A stretch of DNA of 64,000 nucleotides from Candidatus Woesebacteria bacterium GW2011_GWB1_39_12 (GTDB lineage Bacteria; Patescibacteriota; Microgenomatia; UBA8517): assembly GCA_000993405.1 (NCBI GenBank), contig LBWB01000007.1, positions 8,383 to 72,382 of the forward strand, written 5' to 3'. Below the pieces are notes generated by a model that saw only the letters and a list, made by a program, of their open reading frames with translations, did no database searches and was not told where the DNA came from. Below are positions 14,758 through 27,966 of the stretch, piece by piece (positions within the stretch are counted from its first letter, which is position 1; each line of letters begins with the position of its first letter). The position numbers were made by a program, and so were the translations under genes.

Positions 14758-15016
14758 TTGAAGATTAATTTAGGTTAATAAGCTAATAGCTTATTATTCA
14801 AAATATGGTTGGAAGCGAATCCCATTAATTGCGTAAGCTAATTAATTGGGAACTTTTTGAGGATTTGATCCTGGTCCAGGACGAACGCTAGCGACGTGCT
14901 TTAAGCATGCAAGTAGAGCGAGCCCGCAAGGGCAAGCTGCGAACGGCTGAGTAACACGTAGGAACCTACACTTTGGTGGGGTACAGCTCGCCGAAAGGCG
15001 GGGTAATACCGCATGA

Positions 15017-15204
15017 CCTCGTGCTTTGCACAAGGAAATTACGAATAACACAATAAATTCCAAATAACAAATTACAAACAATTATCAATTAATAAATAAC
15101 AAATAATTAACATTGTTTTTTTCATTGAAAATTGGAACTTGAATTTTGTTTGTATATTGGAATTTGTGATTTGTTACAAGTGATTTTCTCGCGCAGAGTG
15201 CGAG
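15017..15204 (+). repeat. IVS-like quasi-palindromic AT-rich insertion element A1 in 16S (helix 10/V2 region)
   Basis: Bounded by GC hairpins cctcgtgctttgcacaagg and ctcgcgcagagtgcgag. The two halves are complementary (ttccaaat... / ...atttggaa). Same family as the 23S elements. Confidence 0.6.
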
Positions 15205-15809
15205 AAAAGGATGTAACTGTCCGCCGAAGAAGGGGCCTGCGGCCTATCAGCTTGTTGGTGGGGTAACGGCCTACCAAGGCTACGACGGGTAGGGGGCGTG
15301 AGAGCGTGTTCCCCCAGAATGGGACTGAGACACGGCCCATACACCTACGGGTGGCAGCAACTGGGAATCGTGCGCAATGGACGAAAGTCTGACGCCGCGA
15401 CGTCGCGTGTGGGATGACGGCCTTCGGGTTGTAAACCACTTTTGCCAAAGAGTGATTACTTTGGAGAATAAGCACCGGCTAACTACGTGCCAGCAGCAGC
15501 GGTAATACGTAGGGTGCAAGCGTTGTCCGAATTTATTGGGCGTAAAGAGTTCGTAGGCGTTTCCTTACATCTTGTTTCAAATACCGGAGCTCAACTTCGG
15601 GAAGGGGCAAGAGATGGAGGAAATTGGAGAGTGCAGGGGCTACTGGAACTTGCGGTGTAGGAGTGAAATCCGTTGATATCGTAAGGAACACCGAGGGCGA
15701 AGGCAAGTAGCTGGGCACACCTTGACGCTGAGGAACGAAAGCTAGGGTAGCGAAAGGGATTAGAGACCCCTGTAGTCCTAGCCGTAAACGATGCTCGCTA
15801 GGGATTTGC

Positions 15810-16012
15810 CACGCAAAGGATATGTCCTTTGCGGGAATTTCTAAGCACAAATATCTAAATTCTAAGTAATATCCAATTTCCAATTTTCCAAATTCAAAAC
15901 AGACTAAAGTGTTATGTATTTGGAGTTTGGAATTCGAGATATTTGAATTTGTTTAGGATTTCGAATTTGGGATTTAGAGTTTCCACGCAAAAACGACACA
16001 TTTTTTGCGTGG
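15810..16012 (+). repeat. IVS-like quasi-palindromic insertion element A2 in 16S (near position 840, V5 region)
   Basis: Flanked by ccacgcaaagg..cctttgcgg and ccacgcaaaaa..tttttgcgtgg hairpins. The interior is AT-rich with complementary halves. Confidence 0.55.
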
Positions 16013-16070
16013 TGAGTCCCGTAAGCTAACGCGTTAAGCGAGCCGCCTGGGGAGTACGAGCGCAAGCTTA

Positions 16071-16102
<32 letters not shown>

Positions 16103-16398
16103 CCAGTGGAGCATCGCAACCCCTGCCGTATGTTAAATTATTCATACGGGACTGGCCAGCTTAGCTGGCAGGAAGTGGGGACGATGTTAAGTCCGCATGG
16201 CCCTTATGTCTAGGGCAACACACATGCTACAATGGAGCCGACAATGGGTTGCCAAGTGGTAACACGGAGCTAATCCCATCAAACGGCTTCTCAGTTGGGA
16301 TTGAGGGCTGCAACTCGCCCTCATGAACGCGGAATTGGTAGTAATCGGAAATCAGCTAAGTTCCGGTGAATACGTTCTCGGGTCTTGTACACACCGCC

Positions 16399-17278
16399 GA
16401 AATTAAAACGCGCGTGGCAGTCATATTTTCTAACAAGTTAAAATCTTGTCTTTGTTGGATAACTTTAATTGTCTAATGGAGTAGCCAAAAAAATATATAA
16501 GCAGTCCTAGTCGGGTAACTGACTAGGGTGGAGGGCTTGAGGCAAAGAACAGGGATAGAATACAAAAAGATAGACGACTTCTGTTGGGCGGTCAGAAGGA
16601 AGTCGTTTTTACAAATCTTACTATTCATGTTTGGAACAGAAAGTATGATGACCCATGGAGATCCTTACAGGATTGAGGTAATTGCCTGTAAGGAAGTCAG
16701 CTTTTCCATAATAGGTAATTGAGCAAGTCTGACTTGCTTGACATTTTCGGGTTATATTTGTAATCTGAAATTACAATTACTGAAGGGAAAAACGTAAATG
16801 TTATTAACTCCAGATTATATAGTTGGTCTTACTGAAGGGGAAGGATGTTTCTTAGTATGCTTGAGACGCGATAATCGGATTGAATTTCGATTTTTTATAG
16901 CTCAGGCAATAGGGAATAGACCTCTTCTTGAAGAAATTAAAAAGTTTTTCAAAGTTGGAAGTGTTTACCAAAAGTCTAATGTAAAGGGAAAGTTACCGGC
17001 ATATGTCTTTGAAATTTCGAAAAGAGATGACATATATAAAGTACTTATTCCATTTTTTCAAAAAAACAAATTGAAAGGCATTAAATCTAAGTCGTTTGCA
17101 GTTTTTGAAGAAATTGCAAAATTAGTTAAAGGTAGACAAGATAAACGTAAACTAACTTCTGAAGAACTGAACTACATAACCAACTTAAGATTTGGAATGA
17201 ATAAACATTACGGCTCGCTAAGTGCGGAAAAACCGCTCGCTTAGTGGGAACGCGCAATAGCCTTAATGAAGCGCAATC
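16399..17278 (+). mobile_element. Intron in 16S at the site equivalent to E. coli position 1397-1400, carrying a LAGLIDADG homing endonuclease gene; probably group I
   Basis: The conserved tgtacacaccgcc...cgtcaag is interrupted by about 880 nt that contain the 16798..17244 ORF. Boundaries are approximate. Confidence 0.65.
16798..17244 (+). CDS. LAGLIDADG-family homing endonuclease, intron-encoded
   Basis: LLTPDYIVGLTEGEGCFLV matches the LAGLIDADG motif. 148 aa, embedded in the 16S insertion. Confidence 0.75.
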   Translation: MLLTPDYIVGLTEGEGCFLVCLRRDNRIEFRFFIAQAIGNRPLLEEIKKFFKVGSVYQKSNVKGKLPAYVFEISKRDDIYKVLIPFFQKNKLKGIKSKSFAVFEEIAKLVKGRQDKRKLTSEELNYITNLRFGMNKHYGSLSAEKPLA

Positions 17279-17552
17279 CGTCAAGTTAGTGAAGTTGGGG
17301 GCACCCGAATCCCGGATGTTCCGGGGCAAGGTGAAACCAGCGACAAGAATTAAGTCGTAACAAGGTATCCGTTCTGGAAGGAGCGGATGGATCACCTCCT
17401 TTCTAAGGAGTGTGAACTCCGATTAAATCGGAGATTACCCCTCAGTTTTCAGGTCGCAGTTTGCTGATAAACTAAACTGGACTCGCGCCTTCTGCGATAG
17501 TGGGCGTTTCCGACCATATTTTGGAGGCCAACCTAAATTATAAATGTCATAA

Positions 17553-17582
17553 AAAAACCCACCGTTTAAGGTGGGTTTTTTA
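17553..17582 (+). terminator. Terminator-like hairpin immediately downstream of 16S
   Basis: aaaaaacccaccgtttaaggtgggtttttt. It has the same stem as 14603-14628. Confidence 0.45.
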
Positions 17583-18078
17583 GTGGTAGAAATTAATATC
17601 CGAAAGTGTGGGGGCAAACATCCCGACTTCGCTTCCCCGAATTTAACCTCGGGGCGGCAAAGTTGCTTTAGAGGATTTTTAGTTCACCCCCACGCTTCCG
17701 GATACAAAAATAAGTTATATCCTTTCTATATTTATTTTAGCATTTTTAAAGAACCGCCGAGTCAAACTCGGCTGGTGCGTTAGACGCTCCGCACTGTTAC
17801 GGATCGAAAGTATTTCAATCCGTAAGTTGTGCGGCGGATTTAAAAGATTATGGAAAAAAGATGAGTGGTTATTGTGTAGCAGAAGCTACAAAATAATTTG
17901 TTCAGGCGCTTGTGCCCAAACTTCCCATCCCCATATTCTTAATAAATCCTTTGTCCCGATAAAATCGGGACAGCCGCTGTCCCAAGTCAAGCTTGACGTA
18001 AGCCGAGTATGACTCGGGTTGTGCCCCTGAAGTCAGGTTCCTCCTAAGGTCCTTTGGACCTCAGGGGCACTATAAATA

Positions 18079-18336
18079 TTACAAACTTTTCTTCCTCGTG
18101 CTCATAAGAAAAAGAGCAATGAGGATAATAATGACTACGGGCACGCTTATAGATCGCCATGCGTTGGTAGTAAAAAATGGCAGCACATAAGCAGCCCACG
18201 ATTTCCAGCTAAGGAATGAAACTAAAATCCCTAGCCCAAGGAAAATACAAAAAATCTTGTACCCGACACTGTCGGGTTTCCGAACCGGTCTATCGTTCAT
18301 TGCCTTTACTCCTTTTGAAAAAGATTTTTTCCTCAT
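18079..18336 (-). CDS. Small two-TM membrane protein (hypothetical) inside the rRNA spacer
   Basis: 85-aa ORF with two hydrophobic helices. Confidence 0.35.
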   Translation of the reverse strand: MRKKSFSKGVKAMNDRPVRKPDSVGYKIFCIFLGLGILVSFLSWKSWAAYVLPFFTTNAWRSISVPVVIIILIALFLMSTRKKSL

Positions 18337-18853
18337 ACGAGGAGAGAGGGGGGGAAAAGTTTTTTCTTCTCCCTCTTTTTCCTCGCAAGAGGCGAGAAAG
18401 GATTCCTAACACACAAATTTTTAATGTGCTAATTCCGCATTATTGACCCTCAAAATTAATTGAGAATCAAGTGGTGCGGGGGAGAAAGAAAAGATAGATA
18501 GTGGAAAGGGGGTTTTAGGTTGCAATAATAATTGCAAAATAAAATAATGATTTGAACGCAACGTTCAAATCCCCAATTCCTTTTCTTTTCGATCTCCCTG
18601 ATCCGTATTATTGTGTGGCAATCCGCCAGCAAGATGCTTTCGCAATCTCGAGGGCAATTTTGCCTCACTCAACGGATATTTCCGCATTTTCAGGTACCAG
18701 TCGGTACCTGATTTTATTCTTTGTTTTTCTCATCCGAAGATGAGTCTCCCACCAAGCTAAGCTTGGTAAACAAAGAGGGGAGAAGGGGGCGGTACCCTTC
18801 CGAGCTGCGTTTCCAACGCAATTCGGGGTGCTGACCGCCCCATAAGGCTCTAT

Positions 18854-19540
18854 TTATTTGACACGAACAACAATGTTCGCGTCATTTCCTGTTGAGCCAT
18901 CAGGCCCGTGGCCATAGATCGTGTAGGTACCGGGTTCAAGGACGAACCCAAGATATAGCCACCCGATGTGGTGGTTGTCCTTGTTGACCCATACCGCTGG
19001 GGGTTCGAGGGGGATGCAATGCATCCCTTTGGTGCAGATTCGCACCTTCTCGAGGGTCCCAAGCCACGTGATCGTGAGCCCGCCACTACCGCTCGGGTAG
19101 TACGTTGCCCGCTTGGGGGCAACGATTTTTGTGACGTCCTTGTCGGACTTCACATAGACGGGGGGGACGGGGGTGCCGGTCGGAACAGGGGTCGGGTTGG
19201 GGACGGGAGTTGGATCAGGGCAATCAGGGCGCTGAATTTTCAGCTGATCTTTTTCGACGTGAGTCGGATTCGACCATTTAGCCGTCGCATTGACGACTGC
19301 CTGTTTCTGGCCGCCCTGCCAGCTTCCCGACTGGTGATTCCAGTGTATTGAAGCCCCAGAAGGGCTTAACTTGGAAACCCAGGAATCCCAGCCTTGGCAG
19401 TTTGCGTTGCCATCGATCTGAAAAATGTAACCCCCGCCCTTGGCGGACGCTGAATCCGACATAGTGCCGGCCAGCATAACGGTCAGGATTAGAGTGGCGA
19501 CCAGCCACTTTTTAATACGGTTGGCGTTCATTATGAACAC
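18854..19540 (-). CDS. Secreted hypothetical protein with a signal peptide and a Pro/Thr linker (PTPVPNPTPVPTGTPVPP)
   Basis: 228 aa with signal MFIMNANRIKKWLVATLILTVMLAGT. The gene is markedly more GC-rich than its surroundings. Confidence 0.6.
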   Translation of the reverse strand: MFIMNANRIKKWLVATLILTVMLAGTMSDSASAKGGGYIFQIDGNANCQGWDSWVSKLSPSGASIHWNHQSGSWQGGQKQAVVNATAKWSNPTHVEKDQLKIQRPDCPDPTPVPNPTPVPTGTPVPPVYVKSDKDVTKIVAPKRATYYPSGSGGLTITWLGTLEKVRICTKGMHCIPLEPPAVWVNKDNHHIGWLYLGFVLEPGTYTIYGHGPDGSTGNDANIVVRVK

Positions 19541-19865
19541 CTCCTATCGATATTCTCCGCTCTACGGCTGGAGTGAGGCCGACTTTCAAAATTGCTGAAA
19601 GCGGTGTAGAAGCAAATAAAGTTAAATAAGTTAATTAAGTTAACTAAGAGATTAAGTAATATTTAGATTTTTGTGCTCCTAATTAACCGATTAACAGATC
19701 ACTATTCTTGCTCGCAAAGCGAGTACTTACTCCCACAAAGCTTCCAGCAATAATTTGTTAATGTGCGACACCCTCCTTATCTTCGCACTTGGCTTTTCAA
19801 TACTATTCGTATACGCCTCCTGCCAAGATTGGTCGGAGGGTTGTGTACTATTTTTATTTATTAAG

Positions 19866-19885
19866 GAACACAAAAAAGCCGCGGC
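19866..19885 (-). terminator. Hairpin plus T-run when read on the minus strand, downstream of the 20245..22497 gene
   Basis: aaaaaagccgcggcttt on the plus strand, which reads aaagccgcggcttttttt on the minus strand. Confidence 0.35.
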
Positions 19886-20244
19886 TTTAGAGGCCACGGC
19901 TTTAATACAAACCGTTAACGGTTAATCAAAATTTTTGATTAACTTAAATTACTTCACCTCTAAAGCATTTACCCTAAGAATGTATCCTAGAGTATTGGCA
20001 CTATAACACAGTAAGTGCTATTTGTCAAGCCCCCCGTGCTCTTGTGCGAGTAAATATTACATTCAAAACACTTTGAGGGGCGAGTTTTTGCAATACTTTG
20101 AATTCACTCGATAATTGCAAATCAAAAAACACACGGGATTTGAAATCGAAAATTTCTGAGTGCGCCAATACAAAATTAGATTGTACCGGTGGTACAATAA
20201 ACTTGGAGAGTACGTTTTCACGAAGTTTTCACGGTAAACTGAAG

Positions 20245-22497
20245 CTAATTTTCGTCTTCAATCTTGCCCTCAAATATTGTCCCTGAAGACTCATTTTGGG
20301 CAGGTTCGGAATCTGATTTCACTTTCTTGGCATATCTTTCCCTTGATACCCGGATAACTTTATCTTTATTCTGATTTCGGGAAACCGGAAGGGGAAGAGT
20401 ATTGGCCAAGAATGGCCTTGTCGTATGTCCATCTATTGTTAGTTTTAGCGCGATTTGGAAATTTTGCAAGTTCACCAGATCGTTTTGCGAGAACACCTCG
20501 GCAAACTCTTTAAAAATTACGTTTGCGTCTTCCGCCCCAACGGCAAAAGAAATTAAAGTTCCGGCATTTCCCAAAATTGCTTTTTGGACATATTCGGGAA
20601 TTTGTGCCATGTATTGGTTTGCTAAAGTTAACGCCAGGCCGAATTTTCTTGCCTCGGACAAAATTTTTATAAATGAATCGGTTGCAAAATTCTGAAATTC
20701 ATCAACATATAAATAAAAAGGGACCCGGGTCTCTTTGGGAATATCGACACGGTGCATTGATGCCAATTGAAACTTTGTAATAAGCATTGCACCAAGAAGA
20801 CTTGAGTTGTCTTCGCCAAGGCGACCTTGGGAAAGGTTTGCGATGAGAATTTTTTTGCCGTTAATTATTTCATCAATAGAAATGGTTGACTTGGGTGCGC
20901 CGATTATTCTGCGTATCAAAGGAGAAGTCACGAACTGTCCGACTTTATTTTGGATGGGAGCTATTGCTTCTTTTTGAAGGGCCATGGGCATTTTGTCGAA
21001 TTCTTCTTTCCAGAAATGAACTAGTGACGGATCGGTTAGTCTGGCAACGATTTTATTTCTGAAAGACTGGTTTGCAAGCATTTTTAAAACGTCTGCCAAA
21101 GTTGAATTGGGGATTTCGGTCAGCGTTAAAAATGAATTTCTTAAAATGTATTCCATTCGGGCAGACCAGACGTTTGCCCAGACTTTTGTAAATATACTCA
21201 TTAAACCCGAGGCGACGAGTTCTGCTTCCTCGCGATTTGTGACTTCCAGGGGATTTAAAACAATGGGGAAGTCACGGTCGGCCGGGTTAAAGTAAATGGT
21301 ATCGTTGATTCTTGAAGCCGGAATATAGTTTAAGATATCGTCGCAAAGGTCCCCATGCGGGTCAATTACGGCAACACCTCTGCCTTTTTTAAAGTCATCA
21401 ATTGCCATATTGGCAATCATTGTTGATTTACCGGTTCCCGTTTTTCCGACGGTCCAGATATGGCGAAGTCTGTCAGATTCTTTTATGCCGAAGATGCTTT
21501 CTTTATTTTTAAAAGGAGTCTTAGCAAAAAAATTGATTTTTCTTTTTTCCTCGTCAGTAAGCCCTTCAGAAACAGGGAGTTTTTCGGGGGGCTCTGTAAG
21601 AACCGATGTCCCCCAGGTAATTCCCGGAACTTTGATTTTTTCCGAAGGCAAATGCCATAAAGTTGCCAGCTCAATGATATTTAAAATTTGTTTATCGGAA
21701 ACACGCCTTGCCCTTAGAGCTTTAGTTTCCGAGGTTTTGTTAAAACGGTTAGGGGATTTGACAGAAAAAGAATTTGCATCTGATCTGGCAAAGACTCCGA
21801 AGGCGTCTGCAATACCTTTCAGGGTTTTATTTGTATTGCCGGCTATCCTTAAAGTAGTTCTGAAACCTGGGTAAGAAATTTTTTCTTTAATGATATTTGC
21901 GTCCGTCCTTTGGGAAAAAGTTCCATCGGCGTTTTTAGCACCTTTATCAGAGAAAACTTGTCCTTGGGTCTGCCAGTTGGGTGTTATTGACTCCAATGCG
22001 ATTTGGATGAGAACCACTTCATCCGGATCTCCTTTTGAAAGGACAGAAAGAATGGATGATAGAGGATCAACGTCCTGGAAATTAGAGTAAGTTTGGATGG
22101 AGTAAAAACTTCCCTTGGCAAGTTTTAGAAAAAACACTTTGATATCTTGATTCTCCAGAGGGCTCGCCTCGATTCGACCGAGTCGGAGCGGGCTCGCCTC
22201 GCTGAAGCTTTGGCGAAGCGGGTCTTCAATTTTTTCAATTATTACCAAAGGATAGTTTGAGCGGATCTGAGTCTCAATAAAAGATACTAATGACGCATGG
22301 CATGTAACAAGAAACCTGATTTGCTGGTTAACTAATGCAATCTCAAGAGCAAAAGCAGGTGGTTTTTTGCCGAGAAGTTTATCCAATGTTGATGCATAAT
22401 TAATTTGGGTTAAAGCGGCAAGAAATGTTTTTGCCGCCTCAGGAGTGACCTCGATATTTCGAGGTAGTTTAAGAGAAAGAGTTATTAATCCTTCCAC
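20245..22497 (-). CDS. TraD/VirD4-family (T4SS coupling-protein-like) P-loop ATPase; HerA/DUF87-like is the alternative
   Basis: Walker A TVGKTGTGKST, ...AVIDPHGD..., Walker B FYLYVDEFQNF, and ...LALTLANQYMAQ... as found in the conjugative coupling protein / T4SS-DNA-transfer domain. Confidence 0.55.
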   Translation of the reverse strand: MEGLITLSLKLPRNIEVTPEAAKTFLAALTQINYASTLDKLLGKKPPAFALEIALVNQQIRFLVTCHASLVSFIETQIRSNYPLVIIEKIEDPLRQSFSEASPLRLGRIEASPLENQDIKVFFLKLAKGSFYSIQTYSNFQDVDPLSSILSVLSKGDPDEVVLIQIALESITPNWQTQGQVFSDKGAKNADGTFSQRTDANIIKEKISYPGFRTTLRIAGNTNKTLKGIADAFGVFARSDANSFSVKSPNRFNKTSETKALRARRVSDKQILNIIELATLWHLPSEKIKVPGITWGTSVLTEPPEKLPVSEGLTDEEKRKINFFAKTPFKNKESIFGIKESDRLRHIWTVGKTGTGKSTMIANMAIDDFKKGRGVAVIDPHGDLCDDILNYIPASRINDTIYFNPADRDFPIVLNPLEVTNREEAELVASGLMSIFTKVWANVWSARMEYILRNSFLTLTEIPNSTLADVLKMLANQSFRNKIVARLTDPSLVHFWKEEFDKMPMALQKEAIAPIQNKVGQFVTSPLIRRIIGAPKSTISIDEIINGKKILIANLSQGRLGEDNSSLLGAMLITKFQLASMHRVDIPKETRVPFYLYVDEFQNFATDSFIKILSEARKFGLALTLANQYMAQIPEYVQKAILGNAGTLISFAVGAEDANVIFKEFAEVFSQNDLVNLQNFQIALKLTIDGHTTRPFLANTLPLPVSRNQNKDKVIRVSRERYAKKVKSDSEPAQNESSGTIFEGKIEDEN

Positions 22498-22559
22498 AGT
22501 AATTTATTATATATCAGGGGGTTGGAGAAAGAAGAGGGAAACAAACTCGTTGGTTATGG

Positions 22560-22922
22560 CTACCGCCGGAGAATTTCTGCTAGTTTATCAATAAAATCTT
22601 GTGTCTCTTTTGGGTGGGTATATATCCAGTAGGTGGCTGTACTCCCAACGCAGAGAAACGTAAGAAAAGCACTCACAGCAACTATGGCAGCCGATTTTCC
22701 TTCACCGGGTTCTGGTTGGTCTGGAATCACTTCTTTCGATATTTCTGTAGGGTCAAGTTCGTGCATAAAAAACTCGTAGTAAATTATAGGATTAATTGAG
22801 TTCGATGTCAAATTGTGGTAAATTAATCGTACTCGGGTGGTTAGTTCACCGGTTAGAACGCTTACCTGATGACAAACGAAGTTTGACATAACAAAAATTG
22901 CAAACGGGGGCACGTAGTTCAC
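22560..22922 (-). CDS. Possible small membrane protein; overlaps the tRNA-Ile fragment and gene
   Basis: 120-aa ORF with one TM. The overlap with tRNA sequence makes it doubtful. Confidence 0.25.
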   Translation of the reverse strand: MNYVPPFAIFVMSNFVCHQVSVLTGELTTRVRLIYHNLTSNSINPIIYYEFFMHELDPTEISKEVIPDQPEPGEGKSAAIVAVSAFLTFLCVGSTATYWIYTHPKETQDFIDKLAEILRR

Positions 22923-23760: not shown

Positions 23761-24063
23761 CTATAAGTCTGATATTAACGCAGACAGTGAATGCCTTGGT
23801 GTAAGTTGCCGAAGAAGGACGCACATGGTAGCGATATTCGTCGGGGAGGAGCCACGATCCTGTGATCCGGCGGTGTCCGAATGGAGAAATCCGACCGAGT
23901 TCATACTCGATCACTCCGTGATAAAAATAATTTACGCAAGTAAGTTGTATAGTCGCGGTAGAGGGAACCGTCCAAACTGAAACATCTAAGTAGGGCGAGG
24001 AAGAGAAATCAATAGATATTCCGTCAGTAGCGGAGAGCGAAAGCGGAAAAGCCCAAACCCGCC

Positions 24064-24242
24064 CGTGCGTAGCACTGGAAGTTCCAATTTCCAATCACCA
24101 ATTTCCAAATAATTTCAAATTTCAAATGACAAATTTTCAAAACATTTCTAATCTTAAAGGAGTTTTGAGTTTTTGATTTTGAATTTCGAGTTTGTTTGGG
24201 ATTTGGAATTTGGGTTTTGGAATTTCTCATGCTGCGCATGAG
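24064..24242 (+). repeat. IVS-like element B2 (23S helix-9 region)
   Basis: The 3' hairpin is ctcatgctgcgcatgag. The two halves are complementary (ttccaatttccaa / ttggaatttgg). Confidence 0.55.
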
Positions 24243-24427
24243 TGGGGGTTGTAGGAGCCCGATGTGGGAGTCGACTTGGTAGCAGAATTATCTGGAATGG
24301 TAGATCATAGAGAGTGAAAATCTCGTATGCAAAATTAAGTCGACCTCTAGGGATTTCCTGAGTACCACGATTTAAATCTTCGTGGGAAGCTGGGGGAGTC
24401 ATCCTCCAAGGCTAAATACAACTTGCA

Positions 24428-24468
<41 letters not shown>

Positions 24469-24523
24469 GGGCGAGACGCCCAGTGAAATAGAACCTGAAA
24501 CTGTTTGCGGACAAACCGAGAGA

Positions 24524-24682
24524 GCCTTCGAACAGGAAATTTCAAAAGACAAATAACAAATTACAAACAAGTTCCAAATAACAGAACCCAATATATAGTT
24601 TTAAAAAGTTTTGCAATTTGTGAATTAATTATTGTTTGTATATTGGAAATTGGTAATTGGAGTTTCCCGCTCGGAGAGCGGG
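24524..24682 (+). repeat. IVS-like element B3 (23S helix-25 region)
   Basis: It follows cagtgaaatagaacctgaaac. The 3' hairpin is cccgctcggagagcggg. Confidence 0.55.
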
Positions 24683-24916
24683 TGATCTCGTGCCTATTGA
24701 AGAATGAGCCGGCGAGTTACCGCGTAGCGCATAGTCTAACCGAGTCTGACTCGGGGAGGCGTAGGGAAACCAAGTCTGAATAGGGCGATTAGCGCGAAGT
24801 GGTAGACCCGAAACCGGGTGATCTATCCATGAGCAGGGTGAACCCCGACGAAAGTCGGGGGGAGGCCCGAACCGGTGTAAGTTGCAATTTGCTCGGATGA
24901 CTTGTGGATAGGGGTA

Positions 24917-24950
<34 letters not shown>

Positions 24951-25179
24951 CCCGAAAGGTCTATAGGGACCGTGGTACGTAAGGTGTTGCCGATGGTAGA
25001 GCTACTGAATGGGTAAGCGAGGGTAACCGAGTTTACTCAATCAAACTCCGAATAGCGGTAAACATTAACGTACTAAACAGTCGCATCGGGCTAAGCTGAT
25101 GCGGCGAAAGGGAAACATCCCAGACTCTCAGCTAAGGCCTCTAAATTACAGCTAAGTTTCAAAGGAAGTTCACGTCCGT

Positions 25180-25230
<51 letters not shown>

Positions 25231-25300
25231 CAGCTCACTGGTCGAGGTTGTGGGCGCCGAAGATTTATCGAGGATAAGCTGTATGCCGAAGCTGGAGATG

Positions 25301-25506
25301 CCTGTTCGTAGAACAGGAAATTTCAAATAATAAATGCCAAGTAACAAACCCTTCGATTTTACTCAGGGTCCTGAGCAGGTCGAAGGACAAATTCCAAATA
25401 ATAAAATCCCAATGAATAAAAAAGTTTTTAGATTTTAAGATTTGTGATTTAAATTTTGTTTGTAAATTGGATATTGAAAATTGGAGTTTCCCGCTCTGCG
25501 AGCGGG
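25301..25506 (+). repeat. IVS-like element B4 (23S helix-45 region)
   Basis: 5' hairpin cctgttcgtagaacagg; 3' hairpin cccgctctgcgagcggg. Confidence 0.55.
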
Positions 25507-25746
25507 TGTGGTAGGGGAGCGTTCCGTATCCAGTGAAGTTAAGCCGTAAGGCTTGGTGGAGGATACGGGAGTGAGAATGCCGGCATGAGTAGCGTACTAT
25601 CCCGGAGAGAATCCGGGACACCGAATGCCCGAGGATTCCGTCGCGAGGTTCGTCCCCGACGGGTTAATCGGTACCTAACCTAAGGCCAAATGGCGTAGGG
25701 GATGGATAACTGGTCAAAATTCCAGTATTTATTTTGAATCGAAAGC

Positions 25747-25904
25747 CCTTGTGCTTTGCACAAGGAAATTACAATAAACAAACACCAATTTCCAAACAAA
25801 TTCCAAATTGCAATTAAGAAAAATAAAATAATTGTGATTTGTTAATTAATATTTGTTTGTAATTTGTAAATTGTGTTTTGTGATTTTCTCGCGCAGAGCA
25901 CGAG
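25747..25904 (+). repeat. IVS-like element B5 (23S, domain III region)
   Basis: Its 5' hairpin ccttgtgctttgcacaagg and 3' hairpin ctcgcgcagagcacgag are almost identical to the ends of 16S element A1. Confidence 0.55.
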
Positions 25905-26979
25905 GTAATTGGGGGTTGACTGGATAGGATGGTTGAAGCCTCATAACGATTTGGGGTGTAAGTTATAAGATAGTGTCAGCAGGAAAATCCGCTAATACGT
26001 TTAATCAAGTAGCGATGCAGAGTCTTGCGCAAGCAAGACAATTTCATCCCATTCAATCTACAAGAAAAGACTCGCAGTGAGATTCAAGGTAAGCCGTACC
26101 GCAAACCGACACAGGTGGGCTGGTCGAGAAGACTAAGGTGATCGAGAGAAAGAGGTTCAAGGAACTCGGCAAAAAATCTGGACGTAAGTTCGCAAGATGT
26201 CCTCCCTGAAAAATCTTCGGATTTTTTAGGGTACAACAAAAGAGTGCTAACCGACTGTTTATCAAAAACACAGGTCCGTGCAAAAGCGAAAGCTAAGGTA
26301 TACGGGCTGACGCCTGCCCAGTGCCGGTAAGTGAAGGGGATGGGTTTTACGGATTTATCCGTAAGGCCTTGAACTCAAGCTCCGGTAAACGGCGGCTTTA
26401 ACTATAAGAGTCCTACGGTAGCGAAGTTCCTTGTCGTGTAAGTTACGACCCGCACGAAAGGCGTTACGAGTTAGCAACTGTCTCGAGCCTCTACTCGGCG
26501 AAATTGCGTTGGCTGTGAAGACGCGGCCTACTTCCACCAGGACAAAAAGACCCCGTGGAGCTTTGTTTTGTGCGAGCCAATTGTTTAGAGTAGGAGGGAC
26601 CCTGAGAGCAATCGAAGGGGACACTGAAACACCTCCCTTTGGAACGTGGCAAGACTTACCTAACGTCCTTGCAAACAGGTCGAGGAAAAGTGCTAGGTGG
26701 GCAGTTTTACTGGGGCGGTACCCTGCCAAAAGGTAACGCAGGGGTACAAAGGTTGGCTTAGCACGGATGGACATCGTGCTGAATGTATAAAGGCATAAGC
26801 CAGCTTGATAGCGACTGCGACGGCAGAAGCTAGTACGAAAGTAGGTCTTAGTGATCCTCCGATTGCCTAGTGATAGGCACGGAGCTTAACGGATAAAAGC
26901 TACCCCGGGGATAACAGAGTAGTCGCACCCGAGAGTCCATATCGACGGTGCGGTTCGCTACCTCGATGTCGGCTCACCG

Positions 26980-27010
<31 letters not shown>

Positions 27011-27023
27011 GGTCTGTTCGCCC

Positions 27024-27068
<45 letters not shown>

Positions 27069-27502
27069 GAGTCCGATAACATATCGGACTGACACCAAGC
27101 GGTCTCATCCCTTGACTGACTGAAATACACATCGAAGGATTAGTAACTAATTTGTTATCAACAATCGTTTATAAGGATATATTAAACGGTTTAATTTAAA
27201 TATTTAAATTTGATCTTTTTGTCTAAATAGGAAAGAGGGAATATAAATCTGACTATATGCTGGAAACTCCGGTGTATCCTGTGCTACTCTTGAAAAAGAG
27301 TGAAAAAGCAACAGGTGCGGACAATCAGCAGGAAAGGCCTCATTAGATATGGAATTATCTAATGGGGAATCCTCAACGACTATACGTCAGAATACGTTCA
27401 GTTTACATGAACGTATAAGATATAGTCTGATCTCCATGGCGACTTGGAGGGTTGAAAATCGTTCAGCCGTAAAAACAAGCGGAGTATTGATATACTAAAT
27501 GT
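27069..27502 (+). mobile_element. ORF-less insertion of about 430 nt in 23S just upstream of the sarcin-ricin loop, equivalent to about E. coli position 2590; putative intron
   Basis: The conserved gtcgtgagacagtt ... cggactctatccggtgg...cagtacgagaggacc is interrupted by AT-rich sequence that contains no ORF of 60 aa or more. Confidence 0.45.
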
Positions 27503-27630
27503 CGGACTCTATCCGGTGGAAGCGTTCGAGTCTTGAAGGGAGCTGGCCTCAGTACGAGAGGACCAGGCCGGGGGAATCCCTGGTGTGCCGGTTGTGGCAT
27601 CAGCCGCAACGCCGGGTAGCTACATTCCCA

Positions 27631-27662
<32 letters not shown>

Positions 27663-27847
27663 GCCCCCCCTAAGATTAGGACTCGTTATTAGATCCCTAG
27701 AAGAATACTAGGTTGTTCGACAGGCGGTGGAAGTCGCGTAAGCGATTAAGCCTACCTTGTACGAATCGATCGATTTCAGACTTACTTACTCCTAATGAAG
27801 TATTGTATAAGCTCACTTTATGGTCTTTAGATGAGAAGCAAAGCTTT

Positions 27848-27966
27848 GGTCTGGTGATGATAGCGGTGCGGAACTACCTGATCCCATTCCGAACTCAGTC
27901 GTCAAACACACCTGCGGCGACGATAGTAAGCGGGCAACTGTTTGCGAAAATAGCACGTCGCCAGGC
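27848..27966 (+). rRNA. rrf: 5S rRNA
   Basis: ggtctggtgatgatagcggtgcggaactacctgatcccattccgaactcagtcgtcaaacac...gcacgtcgccagg resembles bacterial 5S. Confidence 0.65.

Follow-up and report, generated by a model that had tools for sequence, protein, structure and literature searches.

Analysis of the window, a stretch of 64,000 nucleotides (nt) from Candidatus Woesebacteria bacterium GW2011_GWB1_39_12 (contig LBWB01000007.1, positions 8,383 to 72,382), revealed that its 16S rRNA gene is split at the decoding centre by an 880-nt mobile intron with a homing-endonuclease gene. The rRNA operon lies inside the window, with the 16S gene at 14853-~17400, the 23S gene at 23764-27786 and the 5S gene at 27850-27966. 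Modelling by covariation indicates that the RNA of the insert folds like a compact group II intron. The insert is likely a mobile IIC-like intron of group II type, in which the reverse transcriptase has been replaced by a single-motif LAGLIDADG endonuclease. This assignment draws on the insertion site, the family of the open reading frame (ORF), the conservation of the RNA, a fold backed by covariation, a loop complementary to the exons, and the retargeting of that loop in introns at other sites.

The 16S sequence is continuous up to ...CUUGUACACACCGCC (...cttgtacacaccgcc), with its last base at 16398, and after the insert it picks up again at 17279 with CGUCAAGUUAG (cgtcaagttag...), placing the interruption at ...ACACCGCC|CGUCAAG. 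The Rfam model of the bacterial small-subunit (SSU) rRNA tracks the gene as far as this point but no further; beyond the insert, at 17279-17400, lies the genuine 3' minor domain, with helices h44 and h45 and the anti-Shine-Dalgarno sequence CACCUCCUUUCU. The borders of the insert are ambiguous by one C and can be read as 16399-17278 or as 16398-17277, corresponding to C1403|C1404 or C1402|C1403 in the E. coli numbering, which we derived from the universal sequence A1396-CACCGCCCGUC-A1408. The register 16398-17277 is favoured, because relatives with unambiguous borders end in ...AAU; this register also gives the window intron the "AY" 3' end of group II introns (AU). The parts of the interrupted gene are as follows.

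14853-16397, plus strand: 16S 5' exon (Rfam SSU_rRNA_bacteria, 980 bits; alignment to the 16S of relatives)
16399-17278, plus strand: intron, 880 nt (other register 16398-17277; from the sequence and the ends of relatives)
17279-17400, plus strand: 16S 3' exon with h44, h45 and the anti-Shine-Dalgarno sequence (sequence, SSU model)
16798-17244, plus strand: LAGLIDADG homing endonuclease gene, 148 amino acids (ORF, PF00961, homologues)

The sole long ORF of the insert encodes a protein of 148 amino acids that matches the Pfam family LAGLIDADG_1 (PF00961) with an E-value of 4e-17 and 63.4 bits against a cutoff of 23.1. The protein has a single motif, GLTEGEGCF, in which the acidic residue is present, and the nearest solved structures are endonuclease domains of the I-OnuI type (homology to E = 3e-25). 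The original prediction, that the decoding-centre sequence is split by about 880 nt encoding a 148-residue LAGLIDADG protein, is thus confirmed in both parts by the SSU model, the junction sequence and the Pfam match. Its further claim of an endonuclease-bearing rRNA intron that fits a lineage within the candidate phyla radiation (CPR) finds support in the recurrence of the insert in relatives and in published surveys of CPR rRNA genes (PMC11270868).

The 148-residue protein has 201 detectable homologues, many of them 62-98% identical, and the few whose source is named are mostly labelled Woesebacteria. Identical copies of the window protein are encoded on 21 public contigs, NCBI GCA_000993365.1 among them. 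When metagenomes and species-representative genomes were scanned, 133 loci were obtained. Among the 57 closest, 53 hold the same insert at the identical junction, ACACCGCC|...AAUC|CGUCAAG, in hosts that include Woesebacteria, Blackburnbacteria, Microgenomatus and further Patescibacteria. These 53 loci yield 38 distinct insert sequences of 821-929 nt, and the LAGLIDADG motif is present in all except one of them (37/38). Because the same insert recurs at the same junction in so many loci, it is not a chance feature.

The non-coding parts of the insert are also strongly conserved among relatives. A fold was derived from covariation detected by eye together with a custom covariation scan, and was then put to the test on alignment A1, made independently with MAFFT from 35 distinct sequences. 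The local hairpins also emerged from RNAalifold on a composite alignment, whereas pairs that are long-range or pseudoknotted escaped it and were recovered by the custom scan. The resulting model of 136 pairs has standard pairs in 95.8% of the cells over the 35 sequences, compared with 83.9% in column shuffles, and sliding the partners by 1-3 columns drops the pairing to 39-47%. Both-sided (compensatory) changes are seen in 78 of the 136 pairs, against 50 in the shuffles, and the covariation score is 0.399 against 0.174; none of 500 shuffles equalled the observed value on any measure. The model comprises six helical domains, with the stem of domain IV enclosing the ORF. Its elements, including the predicted intron-binding site 1 (IBS1) in the exon and exon-binding site 1 (EBS1) in domain I, are listed below.

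16393-16398, plus strand: IBS1 ACCGCC at the end of the 5' exon, pairing with the EBS1 loop (helix 1)
16399-16409, plus strand: variable 5'-terminal linker GAAAUUAAAAC (A1 columns 21-81)
16410-16414, plus strand: GCGCG, which we take to be the counterpart of the group II GUGYG (GCGC invariant in A1)
16413-16657, plus strand: domain I (helices 2-13; 76-100% of cells paired, most pairs compensatory)
16413-17/16653-57, plus strand: closing stem I(i) of domain I
16420-31/16638-49, plus strand: closing stem I(ii) of domain I
16433-49, plus strand: conserved hairpin of domain I, which also holds a variable hairpin
16484-86/16541-43 and 16500-02/16535-37, plus strand: stems of domain I
16504-29, plus strand: GUAA-capped hairpin of domain I
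16547-58/16621-32, plus strand: long arm stem of domain I, with extensions, ending in the EBS1 hairpin
16578-98, plus strand: EBS1 hairpin
16584-16592, plus strand: EBS1 loop UUGGGCGGU (GGGCGGU, 16586-92, invariant in A1)
16662-16694, plus strand: domain II hairpin, 10-bp stem and 13-nt loop (helix 15)
16695-16701, plus strand: junction J2/3, AGUCAGC (GUCAGC invariant in A1)
16702-16791, plus strand: domain III (helices 17-19)
within 16702-16791, plus strand: basal stem UUUUCC/GGAAAA and internal loop AUAAUAG/GAA of domain III
16714-21/16774-81, plus strand: distal stem of domain III
16745-50/16765-70, plus strand: inner hairpin of domain III
16793-16800, plus strand: 5' strand of the domain IV stem, CGUAAAUG, pairing with 17206-17212 (CAUUACG; helix 20)
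17214-17248, plus strand: domain V (helices 21-22, 98.6-99.1% paired)
17252-17278, plus strand: domain VI and tail (helix 23, 100% paired, 4/4 pairs compensatory)

In relatives, the 5' linker measures ~7 to ~68 nt and often folds into a hairpin, and its first base is not conserved. It is followed by GCGC(G/C), which runs directly into stem I(i). The loop at the tip of the long arm of domain I complements both exons at their junction, as expected of EBS1: GGCGGU pairs with ACCGCC, which ends the 5' exon, and the G before it with the C that opens the 3' exon. All six EBS1-IBS1 pairs are standard in 35/35 sequences, yet invariant. Domain II, preceded by GAGAU, has a stem with 98.6% pairing and compensatory changes in 8/10 pairs. 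Its 13-nt loop pairs with the 15-nt loop of domain VI over 10-11 bp (helix 16, 84.6% paired, four pairs compensatory). A contact between domains II and VI (eta-eta') is a known feature of group II introns, and by analogy the loop-loop helix would be its Watson-Crick equivalent.

The J2/3 motif is also part of the consensus of the Rfam family group-II-D1D4-1 (RF01998), as aligned in two of the relatives (loci L004 and L087), and the domain III motif CAUAGUA...GAAGG matches the same family in relatives. Domain IV consists of a 7-bp stem closing off the ORF. Domain V has a lower stem of 10 bp that includes the triad C17216-G17217-C17218 with the central pair G17217.U17245, followed by five pairs above the triad, a 3'-strand bulge (U17237 and C17238), a 4-bp upper stem and a 5-nt loop. 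The triad, the five pairs, the 2-nt bulge and the length of ~34 nt agree with the canonical geometry of group II domain V, and a CGC triad is the IIC variant of this domain. The central pair of the triad is GU in 32 sequences and GC in three, and the CUAAG/CUUAG of the middle lower stem swaps with CCCGG/CCGGG in a fully compensatory manner. A 3-nt linker (AAC) leads to domain VI, a hairpin at 17252-74 with a 4-bp stem GCGC/GCGC, followed by the tail AAUC.

As the exons of the window family are universal, the test of the EBS1 loop is supplied by introns at neighbouring sites. Their loops are as follows.

L013: site ACACA|CCGCCC (1398|1399), homologous loop CGGUGUGU
L014 and L015: site CUCAC|CGCCC (1399|1400), homologous loop ..GGUGAG
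L004, upstream intron: site UUGUACA|CACC (1396|1397), homologous loop containing GUACA

Each loop is complementary to its own exon junction, covering the last ~5 bases upstream of the intron and one or two bases downstream, and these introns end unambiguously in ...AAU. The intron RNAs of L013 (1398|1399) and of L014, L015 and L110 (1399|1400) are more distant relatives of the window intron RNA, with nhmmer E-values of 4e-15 to 5e-4; their endonucleases are 34-39% identical, and their exon-binding loops are retargeted to suit their sites. Five loci (L004, L006, L064, L071 and L092) carry two introns in tandem, separated by an exon CACCGC(C) of 6-7 nt. The upstream intron of the pair lies at the site UUGUACA|CACCGC, known as rns-1396; the L004 copy (1113-1590) lacks an ORF and the L092 copy has one. 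By nhmmer, the 1402/3 family gives only marginal domain V matches to these upstream introns (E ~0.02), and the kinship of the two rests mainly on shared architecture and motifs. A further seven loci (L012, L100-L105) hold part of the endonuclease gene (residues 1-47 at 85% identity) in a non-rRNA context, preceded by ACCGCC|GAUAAU... and GAAGGGAAGAAC, which looks like a heavily deleted intron copy at an ectopic site.

Rfam was scanned over the whole window at gathering thresholds and over short sub-stretches at E <= 10, and no group I or group II model matched the insert in either case. RF01998, which covers domain II, J2/3 and domain III, is the best of 4227 families on this region of the same-site intron L087, whose domain III is short, with 23.9 bits (E = 0.012) where 35 bits would be required; the gathering score is passed by L004's sister intron (41.6 against 35 bits). 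Its consensus (..AGAAgUCAGC..CAUAGUA..GAAGG) has the same motifs as the window intron, in which a distal domain III of 67 nt probably defeats the model. No group I or group II match was found inside the homologous inserts of 11 relatives.

Several features weigh against the assignment to group II. GUGYG is not found at the 5' end of the intron; GCGCG lies 11-12 nt inside instead, and of the group II terminal bases (GUGYG start, AY end) only the AU end is present, in the register 16398-17277. The domain VI helix of the window fold contains no bulged A as a branch point 7-8 nt from the 3' splice site. The loop of domain V is a pentaloop and not GNRA. Universal exons keep the EBS1-IBS1 pairs constant throughout the 1402/3 family, and these pairs therefore show no covariation by themselves. 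Splicing of the window locus is a prediction from sequence. The group II models of Rfam (the D1D4 families and RF00029) all fail to match the window copy, also on short stretches with E-values up to 10 allowed. In 4/35 relatives (L086, L087, L088 and L098), the pairs of the domain V triad are separated on the 3' strand by an insertion of 45-50 nt with one or two hairpins (A1 columns 1074-1120), and a catalytic helix of fully canonical form is difficult to square with this.

The degenerate 5' motif, the absent branch-point A, the non-GNRA loop, the interrupted domain V of four relatives and the invisibility of the window copy to Rfam also speak for a group II-derived element that no longer splices itself. 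Host RNases would cut out such an element, and an RNA ligase such as RtcB might or might not rejoin the exons; alternatively, the element would depend on the endonuclease as a maturase. The fold would then serve as a scaffold for processing or assembly. Bacterial intervening sequences (IVSs) that are processed by RNase III and leave fragmented rRNA are known (PMC11270868). We regard this explanation as unlikely. The triad, its G.U pair, the bulge, J2/3 and the exon-binding loop have remained invariant although the endonucleases have diverged to 62% amino acid identity, which points to selection on catalysis. In addition, the ends of the insert do not pair with each other, unlike those of RNase III substrates: no long stem of paired insert ends was found, the variable 5' linker is not complementary to the conserved 3' end, and the 3' hairpin loop pairs with domain II. 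A break of the decoding centre at C1402-C1404 would also hardly be tolerated.

A self-splicing group I intron with the endonuclease gene in a peripheral loop is very improbable and was rejected on the splice-site bases and the fold. LAGLIDADG genes do live mostly in group I introns, the window's own 23S gene carries an Rfam group I intron (27196-27449, 80 bits), and weak group I matches occur in other 16S inserts of relatives. However, the last base of the 5' exon is C and not U, and that of the intron is C or U, a G being out of reach. The group I model RF00028 gives no match at E <= 10, and the covariation fold differs from a group I core: it lacks a P3-P7 pseudoknot, and it includes a hairpin of the domain V type as well as, ~190 nt into the intron, an exon-binding loop. 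The original prediction had proposed Infernal scans with group I and group II models and a search for a P1-P9 core. These scans came out empty for the window, and taken literally the empty result would have led to the wrong conclusion that there is no intron. A core does exist; it is of group II type and visible only by comparative analysis.

The idea of an artefact of assembly, or of a dead copy within a 16S pseudogene, to which the absence of E. coli ~947-1099 from the window 16S at 16114|16115 might point, with its motifs nowhere else in the window, is hardly credible, as two same-strain assemblies (L136, 100%; L137, 99.4%) hold the full 167 nt together with the identical intron, and the intron with an intact ORF recurs in dozens of independent assemblies.

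Based on the group II-type fold, we propose a splicing and homing cycle for the intron; catalysis, the hydrolytic pathway, promoter use and the activity and specificity of the endonuclease are predicted here from sequences. In the pre-16S transcript, the ~470 nt of RNA outside the ORF would fold into a six-domain ribozyme. Both splice sites would be defined by the domain I loop GGGCGGU, which would pair with 5-6 bases at the end of the 5' exon and 1-2 at the start of the 3' exon, and the catalytic centre would be formed by domain V together with the AGUCAGC junction. The first step is probably hydrolysis rather than lariat formation, because a variable linker precedes the GUGYG-like motif and domain VI has no bulged A. 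Ligation of the exons would regenerate the universal decoding-centre sequence ACACCGCCCGUCA. At the DNA level, a homodimeric enzyme would cut intron-less 16S rDNA at the insertion site (CTTGTACACACCGCCCGTCAAGTTAGTG), and repair would copy the intron in.

The endonuclease gene occupies the position of domain IV, and in the folded precursor its ribosome-binding site and start codon would be buried in the stems of domains III and IV. The two candidate expression signals are as follows.

16783-16788, plus strand: ribosome-binding site AAGGGA, overlapping the 3' strand of the domain III basal stem
16738-16766, plus strand: candidate internal sigma-70-type promoter, TTGACA, 17 nt, TAATCT (conservation in relatives)

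GAAGGG is conserved in alignment A1 and paired as part of helix 17. The start codon lies within the 5' strand of the domain IV stem, where AUG and GUG starts covary with CAU and CAC ~400 nt downstream (AU in 25 sequences and GC in five; helix 20), and the last 13 codons of the gene overlap the domain IV stem and domain V. Because the ribosome-binding site and the start codon lie in these stems, folding of the ribozyme and translation should exclude each other. The endonuclease is probably expressed either from its own domain III promoter or from unfolded or excised RNA. The internal promoter, which would yield an mRNA without the upstream strands of both stems, is plausible but unproven: TTGnnn and TAnnnT at a spacing of 17-18 nt are kept in 30/35 relatives. 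A consensus promoter scanner did not report it in the window, because the -10 hexamer there matches at only 3/6 positions.

The other features of the operon were compared as well. The segment absent from the window 16S, ~167 nt of the head domain, corresponds to h31-h36 and includes GCAUGGCUGUCGUCAGCUCGUG; its motifs were also not found among the loci compared. The NCBI record (L135) holds 107 nt of the segment, and L136 and L137 hold all of it. A pseudogene or a fragmented 16S is ruled out by these independent same-strain assemblies, retrieved by look-up of the exact protein, and the hole is an artefact of the record or assembly that has no bearing on the intron. Two AT-rich inserts of ~165-180 nt lie at ~15030-15195 and ~15830-16010, in the 5' and central domains of the 16S. 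The insert at the first site is shorter in L002, and that at the second site is found in none of four compared 16S genes. The second folds into a long hairpin (z = -4.1), and the fold of the first is not significant (z = -1.8); both may be IVS-like elements. In L138, a LAGLIDADG_2 ORF lies ~220-920 nt upstream of the position matching the second insert.

The 23S gene is 4023 nt long, compared with 2925 nt for the model, and holds ~800 nt of further extra sequence besides its group I intron; no endonuclease-like ORF of 90 or more amino acids was found in it. The 16S and 23S genes are separated by ~6.3 kb (noted at 17400-22900 of the window), with minus-strand ORFs of 750 amino acids (20245-22497) and 228 amino acids (18854-19540), and two tRNAs just before the 23S gene. 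In L004 and L010 the rRNA genes are much closer together.

The insert splits TGYACACACCGCCCGTC, the target of the widely used universal primers 1391R, 1392R and 1406R, and a 27F-1492R amplicon would gain ~880 nt in addition to the two AT-rich inserts. The original expectation of anomalous products from standard 1391/1492 primers therefore holds in spirit, the anomaly being a split target for the one and a longer product for the other. Both effects would contribute to the under-detection of CPR bacteria in 16S surveys. In addition, an entire, well-conserved family of group II type escapes the curated covariance models. The numbers of rRNA insertions recorded as "unclassified" in CPR genomes are therefore probably too high, and several distinct introns, some of them in tandem, are concealed under "position 1400".

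We tentatively propose, at somewhat less than even confidence, that the C1402/C1403 introns are an uncatalogued, Rfam-invisible bacterial family of LAGLIDADG-bearing IIC-like introns, part of a radiation in which one exon-binding loop has been redirected to four or more sites (1396, 1398, 1399 and 1402/3) in eight bases of the 16S decoding centre, sometimes with two introns in tandem. Such introns would splice by hydrolysis, would use the 11-bp loop-loop helix in place of the tetraloop-receptor contact between domains II and VI, and would keep a promoter, a ribosome-binding site and a start codon inside ribozyme helices. As a compact set of ~470-nt ribozymes with natural variation, retargeted loops, a 5' linker and no branch-point A, the family would be useful for the study of hydrolytic group II splicing and of the way in which group II ribozymes come to be paired with homing endonucleases.

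LAGLIDADG endonucleases are also encoded by group I introns of rRNA genes (I-CreI, I-CeuI and, in CPR 23S, I-ShaI), with which the window intron shares the homing logic and the single-motif homodimer. Unlike these introns, it has no U at -1, no terminal G and no P1-P9 core. Li, Costa and Michel (2011) reportedly described mitochondrial group II introns with 5'-terminal insertions that have lost the branch point. I-ShaI, from a 23S group I intron, is the only CPR enzyme assayed so far. The mitochondrial IIB1-LAGLIDADG introns (Toor & Zimmerly 2002; Mullineux et al. 2010) show the same pairing of ribozyme and endonuclease in rRNA genes, with extra nucleotides between the 5' splice site and the GUGYG motif and a non-canonical domain VI, and the window endonuclease is closest to the fungal I-OnuI-type clade. 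The mitochondrial introns differ from the window intron in being organellar, in their IIB1 backbone, in their usually double-motif endonucleases and in their sites (rns-788, rns-952, rnl-2059 etc.). In mitochondrial rRNA group II introns, a 5' linker goes together with loss of the branch point and possible hydrolytic splicing; among group II introns bearing LAGLIDADG homing endonucleases (LHEs) in general, 5' linkers are a known exception and branch-point loss is recurrent (PMC13190283).

Insertions of this type in CPR 16S genes were first catalogued by Brown et al. 2015 and were found by them to be removed from transcripts, as cited in PMC11270868. In the survey of Tsurumaki et al. 2024 (PMC11270868), "group II intron-like" insertions in CPR 16S were seen only at "position 1400" (16IS9), where 39/53 insertions encode LAGLIDADG endonucleases. 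The window intron shares with 16IS9 the CPR/Microgenomates host, the 16S region, the single LAGLIDADG_1 domain and the group II-like RNA. However, the group II status of 16IS9 was called from Rfam matches on whole rRNA genes, and the window copy gives none. Furthermore, "position 1400" lumps at least four sites (1396, 1398, 1399 and 1402/3), and some of the "group II + LHE" calls may merge two tandem introns.

Together with the "position 1400" insertions of CPR, the closest known system is rns-1396 of Thiomargarita/Thiotrichaceae, the sole bacterial family among the 13 families of LAGLIDADG-bearing group II introns described by Liu et al. 2026 (PMC13190283); the earlier work of Salman et al. 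2012 on rns-1396 is cited here only through PMC13190283 and PMC11270868. The family has a IIC backbone and a 5'-terminal linker in all members, it lacks both exon-binding site 2 (EBS2) and IC2, its domain IV carries an endonuclease with a single motif, and it is inserted at UUGUACA|CACCGC (A1396|C1397) with the EBS1 GUGUACA (PMC13190283). The window intron has the same architecture, with a 5' linker, a single-motif endonuclease in domain IV, a compact IIC-like RNA in a bacterial 16S gene and an EBS1 loop, and its 3' end GCGCAAU is also found in the rns-1396-site intron of L092. It differs in its site, C1402/3, which lies 6-7 nt downstream, and in its EBS1, GGCGGU. The 1402/3 site family is missing from the 2026 census (PMC13190283), although this kind of element is already documented, and the window intron belongs to a sister family of rns-1396 rather than to rns-1396 itself.

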